A stretch of DNA of 64,000 nt from Escherichia coli. GTDB taxonomy: Bacteria; Pseudomonadota; Gammaproteobacteria; Enterobacterales; Enterobacteriaceae. Position numbers and translations under genes: made by a program. Positions 8,174 to 18,159 of this stretch are shown here, in pieces. The notes under the pieces are model-generated. The model was not told the origin of the DNA. It did no database searches and was given only the letters and a program-made list of their open reading frames with translations. The DNA is taken from assembly GCF_030013205.1 (NCBI RefSeq), contig NZ_CP122648.1, one strand, 5' to 3'. Within the stretch, counting starts at the first letter, position 1. Every line of letters starts with the position of its first letter.

Positions 8174-9469
<1,296 letters not shown>

Positions 9470-15656: not shown

Positions 15657-15985
15657 CTATTTGTTAGTGAATAAAAGGTTGCCTGTAAAATTACAAAAAC
15701 CTTACGCAGCGTCAAGCGGAATCGTGTCAATCATTGCGACAAATCAATCCTGTGCCTAAGCATTACGCGACTGACTCGCCTCACTCTTCCTTTGGGCTTG
15801 AGACCACATGGGGTCGGCGTCCCGAATTTTAAAGGGCAATTACGATAAAAATGTGATTTTCATCACGATTTAGGTGCAGCCATTTCATCGAGATCAAGTT
15901 TAGGACAAAATTTTGCCAGTTGGTGTTAATGTTTTGTTAGAATCAGTCACGTAATGTGAGCACGATTAAAGTGAGATGTGAGCAA

Positions 15986-16440: not shown

Positions 16441-16713
16441 ATGAATCTTGATGACATTATCAACAGCATGACGCTTGAGGTATACCAGCGTTTGTCGACC
16501 GCCGTTGAATTGGGCAAATGGCCTGATGGCGTTGCGTTGACCGAGGAACAAAAAGAGAACTGCCTGCAACTGGTGATGCTGTGGCAAGCCCGCAATAATA
16601 CCGAAGCACAGCATATGACAATTGACACAAATGGTCAGATGGTCATGAAGAGCAAACAACAGTTAAAAGAAGATTTTGGTATCTCAGCAAAGGCTATTGC
16701 CATGTTTAAGTAA
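16441..16713 (+). CDS. yeaC: DUF1315 protein YeaC, 90 aa
   Basis: ORF 16396..16713 trimmed to ATG 16441 (MNLDDIINSM...). Confidence 0.8.
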   Translation: MNLDDIINSMTLEVYQRLSTAVELGKWPDGVALTEEQKENCLQLVMLWQARNNTEAQHMTIDTNGQMVMKSKQQLKEDFGISAKAIAMFK

Positions 16714-16935
16714 GTGGTTTGTCCCCTTTTTGCCGCGGTTATAAAGGGGATAGCCAACAATAACCCCACGACTCATCTCAATTATCTCGTCACGACCAGG
16801 CTAAGTCCCAGCCCGGTCTCTTGCAGTCGCGTTCACGCCTGAATGACTTCTCCTGAACTTAAGTCTCAGACCTATTTGGCCGGTAATCCCTCTCAAATTT
16901 GCTCATTTTGCGTTCCGCCTTCCATCAACCTGTAA

Positions 16936-17007
16936 CAGATCCAGCCATTTTCTGTGTAATTGTGATCTGAGTTGTAAAACGCAGATCATTATCTGTGTTC
17001 TACAGAT
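16936..17007. promoter_or_regulatory. Array of GATCTG/CAGATC half-sites (two adjacent palindromes) upstream of ydjL; candidate operator
   Basis: CAGATC 16936-16941; TGATCTG 16963-16969 paired with CAGATCA 16982-16988; ATCTGT 16991-16996 paired with ACAGAT 17002-17007. Confidence 0.35.
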
Positions 17008-17012
17008 TTAAT

Positions 17013-17044
17013 GTTGACCTCAAAAATCATGTGGGTAAGTATGA
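17013..17044 (+). promoter_or_regulatory. Candidate sigma70 promoter of the ydjL operon
   Basis: TTGACC at 17013-17018 with AAGTAT/TATGAT -10-like hexamers 17-21 bp downstream; about 40 bp upstream of the ydjL ATG. Confidence 0.3.
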
Positions 17045-17082
17045 TGACCATCTAAGCAAAACAAAACACAGAGGATGACGCA

Positions 17083-18159
17083 ATGAAAGCACTGGCTCGG
17101 TTTGGCAAAGCCTTTGGCGGCTACAAGATGATCGATGTCCCACAACCCATTTGTGGCCCGGAAGATGTAGTGATTGAAATTAAAGCCGCGGCAATCTGCG
17201 GCGCAGACATGAAGCACTACAATGTCGATAGCGGTTCTGATGAGTTTAACTCTATCCGCGGCCATGAGTTCGCAGGTTGTATTGCGCAGGTTGGTGAAAA
17301 AGTCAAAGACTGGAAAGTGGGGCAACGCGTCGTGTCGGATAACAGCGGTCACGTCTGCGGCGTTTGTCCGGCCTGTGAACAAGGTGATTTTCTGTGTTGT
17401 ACAGAAAAAGTAAACCTTGGTCTGGATAACAATACCTGGGGCGGTGGTTTTTCCAAATATTGTCTGGTTCCTGGTGAAATTCTCAAAATTCATCGTCATG
17501 CGTTGTGGGAAATCCCTGATGGTGTTGATTATGAGGACGCAGCCGTACTTGACCCTATCTGTAATGCCTACAAATCCATCGCGCAGCAATCGAAATTCCT
17601 TCCTGGTCAGGATGTGGTCGTCATCGGCACTGGCCCACTCGGGCTGTTCTCCGTACAAATGGCGCGGATTATGGGGGCGGTAAATATCGTCGTCGTTGGT
17701 CTGCAAGAAGATGTGGCGGTCCGCTTTCCGGTTGCAAAAGAACTGGGTGCGACGACTGTAGTAAATGGTTCTACCGAAGATGTGGTGGCGCGCTGCCAGC
17801 AAATTTGTGGCAAAGACAATCTGGGACTGGTGATTGAATGCTCCGGTGCCAATATCGCACTGAAACAAGCCATCGAAATGCTCCGTCCGAACGGGGAAGT
17901 GGTACGCGTTGGAATGGGCTTCAAACCTCTTGATTTCTCGATTAATGACATTACCGCCTGGAACAAAAGCATCATTGGGCATATGGCCTATGACTCCACC
18001 TCATGGCGTAACGCTCTCCGGCTATTAGCCAGCGGCGCTATCAACGTCAAACCGATGATCACGCATCGTATCGGCCTGTCGCAATGGCGCGAAGGGTTTG
18101 ATGCGATGGTCGATAAAACCGCAATCAAAGTGATCATGACTTACGACTTTGATGAATAA
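17083..18159 (+). CDS. ydjL: Zn-dependent MDR-family alcohol/polyol dehydrogenase YdjL, 358 aa
   Basis: ORF 17083..18159. Confidence 0.85.
   Translation: MKALARFGKAFGGYKMIDVPQPICGPEDVVIEIKAAAICGADMKHYNVDSGSDEFNSIRGHEFAGCIAQVGEKVKDWKVGQRVVSDNSGHVCGVCPACEQGDFLCCTEKVNLGLDNNTWGGGFSKYCLVPGEILKIHRHALWEIPDGVDYEDAAVLDPICNAYKSIAQQSKFLPGQDVVVIGTGPLGLFSVQMARIMGAVNIVVVGLQEDVAVRFPVAKELGATTVVNGSTEDVVARCQQICGKDNLGLVIECSGANIALKQAIEMLRPNGEVVRVGMGFKPLDFSINDITAWNKSIIGHMAYDSTSWRNALRLLASGAINVKPMITHRIGLSQWREGFDAMVDKTAIKVIMTYDFDE

Follow-up and report, generated by a model that had tools for sequence, protein, structure and literature searches.

The 125 bp upstream of ydjL probably form a composite control region for a catabolic operon, in which phased operators for the regulator YdjF lie next to a Crp half-site. 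This reading, which we favour, comes from a computational analysis of a 64,000-nucleotide stretch of Escherichia coli DNA (the window; positions count from its first letter). A predicted motif of about 19 bp is found 7 bp upstream of the -35 elements of both ydjL and ydjF, with weaker copies 20-21 bp away. The features concerned are collected in Table 1.

Table 1. Predicted regulatory elements and genes at the ydjL and ydjF promoters
Feature	Position	Strand	Sequence	Basis or remark
Crp-like site	16961-16976		TGTGA-TCTGAG-TTGTA	holds GATC no. 1 and the left arm of the first palindrome
O2, tentative distal operator	16971-16989	+	GTTGTA-AAA-CGCAGA-TCAT	right arm of the first palindrome plus GATC no. 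2
O1, main operator candidate	16992-17010	+	TCTGTG-TTC-TACAGA-TTTA	second palindrome; matrix score 14.5 bits, conserved
O0, promoter-proximal operator candidate	17012-17030	+	TGTTGA-CCT-CAAAAA-TCAT	over the -35 and spacer
Predicted ydjL -35	17014-17019	+	TTGACC	TTGA invariant in 22 species
Predicted ydjL -10	17037-17042	+	AAGTAT	17-bp spacer; start predicted near 17049
ydjL, first gene of ydjLKJIHG	17083-18159	+		RefSeq annotation of K_EC180
Conserved block, tentative distal operator	23441-23459		ACCTCTGTTTCTGTGAAAA	TCTGTG half-site 22 bp before the next one
F-O1, operator candidate upstream of ydjF	23468-23486	-	TGTTTG-AAT-CACAGA-TTTT	best hit in the window
Tentative operator copy over the ydjF -35	23492-23506	+	TTTTGA-AAG-TAAACA	read from the sequence; 20 bp downstream of the F-O1 core
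ydjF promoter	23494-23522	+	TTGAAA-17-GATAAT	identical to published constitutive promoter
ydjF, DeoR-family regulator (HTH_DeoR plus DeoRC)	23561-24319	+		annotation and Pfam

The 369-bp yeaC-ydjL spacer (16714-17082) is 100% identical to that of E. coli strain K_EC180, whose RefSeq annotation gives the gene order yeaC (ending at 16713), ydjL, ydjK, ydjJ, ydjI, ydjH, ydjG, ydjF, the ydjE pseudogene and pncA. Of 5426 complete E. coli genomes, 4333 carry it at 93.5-100% identity and the other 1093 gave no match. The allele of the window (at least 99% identity) occurs in only 156 E. coli genomes, most strains differing by 5-6.5%. Several genes of the locus are damaged in individual strains: ydjE (24436-25794) is annotated as a pseudogene here and has an internal stop, ansA, at one end of the locus, is annotated as frameshifted, and ydjL itself carries an internal stop in E. 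coli NT1F10. The spacing also varies between genera: ydjL starts ~1.6-2.1 kb after yeaC in Citrobacter, Klebsiella, Raoultella and Yokenella as against 369 bp here, which implies that extra DNA was inserted there. A conserved stretch, GCGAAGGGGTTCACG, is present ~170-190 bp upstream of ydjL in the same four genera.

YdjF has the make-up expected of a local repressor of the DeoR family, with an N-terminal DeoR HTH (HTH_DeoR, PF08220, 5e-17) and a C-terminal DeoRC sensor domain (PF00455, 4e-49) encoded by a gene in or next to the cluster. It is still listed among the uncharacterised E. coli transcription factors (PMC4797297), and no binding, footprint, ChIP or mutant data on it were found in the literature searched. 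The earlier note had named YdjF as the obvious candidate regulator of the ydjL operon. It appears to be by far the best candidate; in Firmicutes and Actinobacteria, no regulator gene other than ydjF was found to be conserved in the cluster. A search with YdjL returned 59 loci, and every complete one has ydjL to ydjG followed by a ydjF ortholog, in Enterobacterales, Firmicutes and Atopobiaceae alike. In the gut Firmicutes and the Atopobiaceae genome, identity to the E. coli proteins is 76-84% for YdjL, 41-56% for YdjF and 51-75% for YdjK where it is present, which suggests that the ydj cluster was transferred horizontally between phyla. Some gut Firmicutes clusters have an ABC system in place of the MFS transporter. 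We also noted four contigs of 241-545 bp, from Terrisporobacter, a Prolixibacteraceae bacterium and Limosilactobacillus, whose YdjL fragments share 94-99% identity with the E. coli protein, with coverage below 1 where the contig name states it. They are probably enterobacterial contamination of the assemblies.

The earlier note had drawn attention to this region as an array of five copies of the hexamer CAGATC/GATCTG, arranged as two palindromes and a solo copy. The strings themselves are present: CAGATC at 16936-16941, TGATCTG (16963-16969) and CAGATCA (16982-16988) separated by 12 nt, and ATCTGT (16991-16996) and ACAGAT (17002-17007) separated by 5 nt. However, just three of the five hexamers are exact, since the pair in the second palindrome, TATCTG/CAGATT, matches at 5 of 6 positions. 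Nor does each site contain GATC, which occurs at 16964-16967, 16984-16987 and, in the solo copy, 16938-16941; the TTGACC downstream begins at 17014 and not 17013. Three hexamers fell within 52 bp in 1.5% of random placements of the window's 37 copies (p = 0.015). A second cluster of three CAGATC/GATCTG hexamers, within 45 bp, is found inside the yeaH coding region (9062-9106) and shows that such groupings can occur with no role in regulation, so that hexamer clustering alone is weak evidence. The solo CAGATC is a chance, lineage-specific feature, because the surrounding DNA is unalignable between genera and five further E. coli alleles, one of them K-12-like, have CAGACC at this position. Indeed, it was rejected as an extra site together with a TCTGTG at 16951: both are minority-allele variants (the latter is TCTGCG in the five other alleles) and both sit in DNA that could not be aligned across 22 enterobacterial species.

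The recurring unit is instead a core of about 15 bp, TCTKTG-N3-CAMAGA, which is flanked by A/T and recurs at intervals of 20-21 bp. It emerged de novo when Gibbs sampling was applied to 12 non-enterobacterial ydjL promoters (Firmicutes and Actinobacteria), as the palindromic core of the 19-mer TCTKTGTTTYAAAGATTTT. A matrix made from ten of the resulting sites was scanned blind over both strands of the window (~128,000 positions). The highest-ranking position was 23468-23486, upstream of ydjF (22.6 bits), and the second was 16992-17010, the second palindrome or O1. A score of 22.6 bits was reached in 0 of 300 random 64-kb windows. That of O1 was reached in 64% of them and is not significant window-wide; as an a priori test of the 125-bp block, a score at this level has a probability of ~0.002. 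In 22 of 22 enterobacterial loci (~21 kb each) the best hit fell in the ydjL or ydjF promoter, and in 19 of the 22 the two best hits both did so, although these loci are phylogenetically related and hence not independent tests. In the reverse test, a matrix from the enterobacterial sites was applied to 16 non-enteric loci, and in 7 of them its highest score fell upstream of ydjL. A promoter motif shared in the manner of a DeoR-type array was thereby obtained independently of the locus under test. Covariation of the motif with the YdjF recognition helix was tried as a further test and set aside as not discriminating, the helix being nearly invariant across phyla.

These results support the proposal that an operator region controls the ydjL operon, inasmuch as the motif recurs upstream of ydjF and follows the cluster across phyla. 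The second palindrome, whose core TCTGTGTTCTACAGA spans 16992-17006, is on this sequence evidence the robust element of the ydjL upstream region: its equivalent ranks among the best hits in 22 of 22 enterobacterial loci, its half-sites are conserved, and its sole E. coli polymorphism is at the centre (17000). No earlier description of this putative YdjF binding motif seems to exist. In Megamonas the TCTGTG-type motif is replaced by two ATGTTTA-N-TAAACAT palindromes, ~20-65 bp upstream of ydjL, on the downstream side of the predicted promoter. In that genome the YdjF ortholog may recognise an operator of another kind, or the control may be due to a different regulator.

The motif copies are regularly placed relative to each other and to the promoter. 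At ydjL the O1 core is followed after 7 bp by TTGACC, and at ydjF the F-O1 core TCTGTGATTCAAACA is followed after the same gap by TTGAAA. A Clostridiaceae genome that has no ydjK shows a comparable layout ahead of an ABC-transporter/FGGY-kinase operon adjoining ydjF, in which two copies are spaced at 21 bp, another covers the -35 and the gap is again 7 bp. Among the non-enterobacterial promoters, the spacings between hits were 20 bp (five times), 21 bp (four times), 41 bp (five times) and 19 bp (once), with only two others. Upstream of E. coli ydjL, too, there are several phased predicted sites, at least one of them over the core promoter. O0, a copy absent from the earlier note, lies on the -35, 20 bp beyond O1, with a score of 10 bits (99.97th percentile), part of which is supplied by the TTGA of the -35; its equivalent is a recurrent third-best hit in the enterobacterial loci, reaching 22.6 bits in Budvicia. 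O2 lies 21 bp upstream of O1 and is weak, with 3.3 bits here and 1-9 bits in most other enterics (~99.5-99.9th percentile). The equivalent positions read TCTGCGAAACAAATA in Serratia and TCTTCAATGTGAAGA in Symbiopectobacterium, again 21 bp from O1.

The ydjL promoter itself was predicted from conservation. Within its -10, 17038 (A) and 17042 (T) are nearly invariant and 17041 invariant, the variants being AATTAT, AACTAT and GATAAT. A simple consensus promoter scan returned no plus-strand promoter for ydjL, missing it because of the weak -10, and gave a minus-strand match only. This sigma-70-like match (TCAACA-18-GATAAT, 17017-16988) overlaps O1 and the -35; since no gene follows on that strand for ~300 bp, it probably arises from the A/T-rich palindromes. 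Transcription may also enter from upstream. The 'ydjL 5' UTR' construct of Adams et al. was made with a primer that matches ~16607-16627, inside yeaC and ~476 nt upstream of ydjL, the sole 5' end that published work has used, and these authors described a Rho-dependent termination region internal to ydjL, which together suggest that an upstream transcript crosses the operator region and ends within ydjL.

Conservation of the region is sharply bounded. Across the 22 enterobacterial species a conserved block runs from about 16958 to the ydjL ATG, preceded by unalignable DNA, and the bases invariant within it include the TTGA of the -35, TGTGA (16961-16965), the central TT of the second palindrome and the A residues of CAGAT at 16983 and 16985. 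In the five other E. coli alleles, variation in the block is confined to 16969, 17000 and three sites that follow the -10 and precede the start codon. Polymorphic positions number 23 of 244 upstream versus 5 of 125 in the block, no more than a trend in the expected direction (p = 0.065).

The first palindrome behaves differently from the second. In this strain it consists of 11-nt arms, complementary at 10 of 11 positions, around a 4-nt centre. The left arm lies in an invariant box, TGTGATCT, that constitutes a consensus Crp half-site with its flank. Compared with TGTGA-N6-TCACA, the sequence at 16961-16976 matches at 7 of 10 positions, the left half and TCT flank being perfect and the right half, TTGTA, poor (2 of 5). 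It is the conserved candidate with a perfect half-site among four Crp-like sites with three mismatches in the spacer, none of which is better. Its centre, 16968.5, falls at about -80.5 from the predicted start at 17049, which does not coincide exactly with the class I positions near -61.5, -71.5, -82.5 and -92.5. A far better Crp site, TGTGATTTTCATCACG, with one mismatch from consensus, is present at 15852-15867 in the divergent gapA-msrB intergenic region. Li et al. (PMC8085971) describe ydjLKJIHG as a newly validated Crp-activated operon: Crp-cAMP bound its promoter in EMSA, and transcriptomics showed that its expression falls when crp is lost. From the sequence, this published binding most likely maps to the TGTGATCT box.

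Conservation of the palindrome is correspondingly uneven. TGTGA on the left is kept in 22 of 22 species and GATC no. 1 in 21, but the full right arm, CAGATCA, in only 12; position 16969, the last G of GATCTG, varies both within E. coli and across genera (TGATCTG in 10 of 22, TGATCTA in 7). Thus, of the two palindromes proposed as operators, the second is supported and the first is unlikely to be a single dimer site, because its arms evolve independently, their spacing is half a turn off and the left arm coincides with a candidate Crp half-site. The first palindrome is probably a composite in which that half-site adjoins the right half of O2, the tentative distal operator. An alternative reading of the TGTGATCT box is as an extra YdjF half-site.

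The earlier note had also placed ydjF at the end of the operon. The gene appears to be more than a terminal member, with its own promoter and its own operator motif. The promoter is on the list of 'constitutive promoters' recognised by RNA polymerase holoenzyme alone, from which that of ydjL is missing (PMC3946193). F-O1, whose plus-strand core spans 23472-23486 and is conserved in enterics, places an in silico site at the regulator's own promoter, as autoregulation would require. Further upstream, the block ACCTCTGTTTCTGTGAAAA is conserved in 18 enterobacterial ydjF upstream regions, though it is not a top matrix hit.

These findings suggest a model for control of the operon. YdjF would be made from its own promoter, recognised by RNA polymerase, and as an oligomer would bind the phased sites cooperatively, repressing ydjLKJIHG by covering the -35 and the DNA upstream of it and limiting its own synthesis through F-O1. 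A phosphorylated pathway intermediate, most likely a sugar acid produced by the YdjH kinase, would release YdjF; we propose such an effector because it is usual for the DeoR family. Once YdjF is released, Crp-cAMP would activate ydjL through the TGTGATCT half-site. Since the Crp site shares DNA with the distal operator, binding of YdjF and of Crp may be competitive, and both GATCs would be by-products of the Crp and O2 sites. In a biosensor screen (PMC6561318) the ydjL promoter was silent in culture but active in the gut of mice, which fits repression of this release type.

Several other readings of the region were considered. It is unlikely that the two palindromes are separate operators, each bound by one YdjF dimer through ATCTG/CAGAT, with Crp having no role in the left arm. 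The near-perfect 11-nt arms of the first palindrome in this strain, the ATCTG/CAGAT common to all four arms and the occurrence of TGTGAT beside half-sites in the ydjF promoter would all suit such an arrangement. However, its extended complementarity is confined to Escherichia and it gets no score from the cross-phylum matrix. Serratia and Enterobacillus have lost the right arm and retained the left, in keeping with the imbalance across species (21-22 of 22 for the left TGTGA/GATC versus 12 for the full right arm), and the ATCTG-CAGAT spacing of 12 nt differs by half a helical turn from the 7 nt of the robust site. The published Crp interaction, moreover, requires a site, and 16961-16976 is the best available. 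A different objection concerns the sign of regulation. FucR is a DeoR-family activator, and YdjF could similarly recruit RNA polymerase, with its ligand, from sites centred near -50 and -72. The two strongest sites do lie upstream of the -35, a position typical of activators too and a point against our repressor model; the weak ydjL -10 (AAGTAT) and the absence of this promoter from the RNA polymerase-alone list (PMC3946193) point the same way. We nevertheless consider activation rather improbable, given that the ydjF promoter, where RNA polymerase needs no additional factor, shows the same geometry, and that a further copy overlaps the -35 both at ydjL and at the Clostridiaceae transporter promoter. 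Most members of the family are repressors, and Crp already serves as activator.

The earlier note had suggested that Dam methylation could modulate binding, and methylation of the GATCs at 16964 and 16984 might then give epigenetic or heterogeneous control of ydjL. The two are 20 bp apart within the predicted Crp and O2 sites, and protein-protected GATCs have a precedent at the gut operon, where GutR binding protects GATC from methylation (PMC10742451, PMC3145626). Such control is nonetheless highly improbable at ydjL. The strongest operators, O1 and F-O1, contain no GATC; GATC no. 2 survives in just 13 of 22 species, and the Crp consensus accounts for GATC no. 1. The region thus differs from switches of the pap/agn43 type, in which conserved GATCs lie in the key regulator sites. 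Removal of the GATC at the gut operon left expression unchanged, and the literature searched for ydjL together with GATC methylation held no report linking the two. Methylation at ydjL would more probably report occupancy than exert control. Finally, the repeats could reflect chance similarity in an A/T-rich promoter, as the coding-region cluster in yeaH might suggest, or an RNA-level role in the yeaC read-through transcript, the left half of O1 being complementary to the ydjL ribosome-binding region. Either is extremely improbable, because the motif recurs across phyla and at two promoters with fixed geometry. A role in RNA for the complementarity between 16986-16999 and the ribosome-binding region was rejected, as the fold is no better than that of shuffled sequences (z = -0.84) and no Rfam family matches.

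Repression by phased YdjF operators combined with Crp activation therefore remains our preferred reading. It represents a gain in annotation rather than a new principle, being a textbook DeoR-plus-Crp layout for a sugar-catabolism operon. A bolder view, which we regard as distinctly improbable, is that the ydj cluster has travelled among Firmicutes, Actinobacteria and Enterobacterales as one self-contained module of regulator, operator and 7-bp geometry, that enterobacteria added a competing Crp half-site over the distal operator, and that occupancy of this overlap, which holds the two GATCs, could imprint a methylation state and make expression of the gut-induced operon differ from cell to cell. 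The ydjL promoter was one of the most consistent gut-specific triggers in the biosensor screen (PMC6561318), and it drives an operon without an established physiological substrate. The coordinates of the operator motif, the predicted autoregulatory site and the candidate Crp site make ydj regulation directly testable, and a defined DNA fragment for YdjF offers a handle for finding the inducer and for promoter engineering.

The predicted arrangement has parallels in several characterised systems. The GlpR operators of the glp regulon form tandem arrays of ~20 bp on the same helix face that span promoter elements, with CRP activation and a sugar-phosphate inducer; the predicted ydjL array is likewise phased at ~20 bp and combined with CRP, though the consensus differs. 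DeoR, an oligomeric repressor with a DeoR-type HTH, binds multiple palindromic operators at deoO1, deoO2 and deoOE, as in the layout predicted for ydjL. However, DeoR loops between operators hundreds of bp apart, whereas the ydjL sites are contiguous at 20-21 bp, with a second set 6.5 kb away at ydjF. FucR belongs to the same protein family as YdjF, and sites upstream of the -35 would suit its mode of action, but repression by YdjF is favoured by the copy that lies on the -35 and by the recurrence of the same layout at a promoter that needs no factor. The closest resemblance in composition is to gutABD (srl), regulated by GutR/SrlR and CRP, for which the summaries in PMC10742451 and PMC3145626 describe a DeoR-family regulator encoded in the operon, overlapping repressor and CRP sites and a GATC inside the shared site, much as we predict for ydjL. 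The motifs are unrelated and the ydjL GATCs lie outside the strongest operator. At gutABD binding and Dam protection were shown experimentally, whereas the ydjL sites are predicted from sequence.
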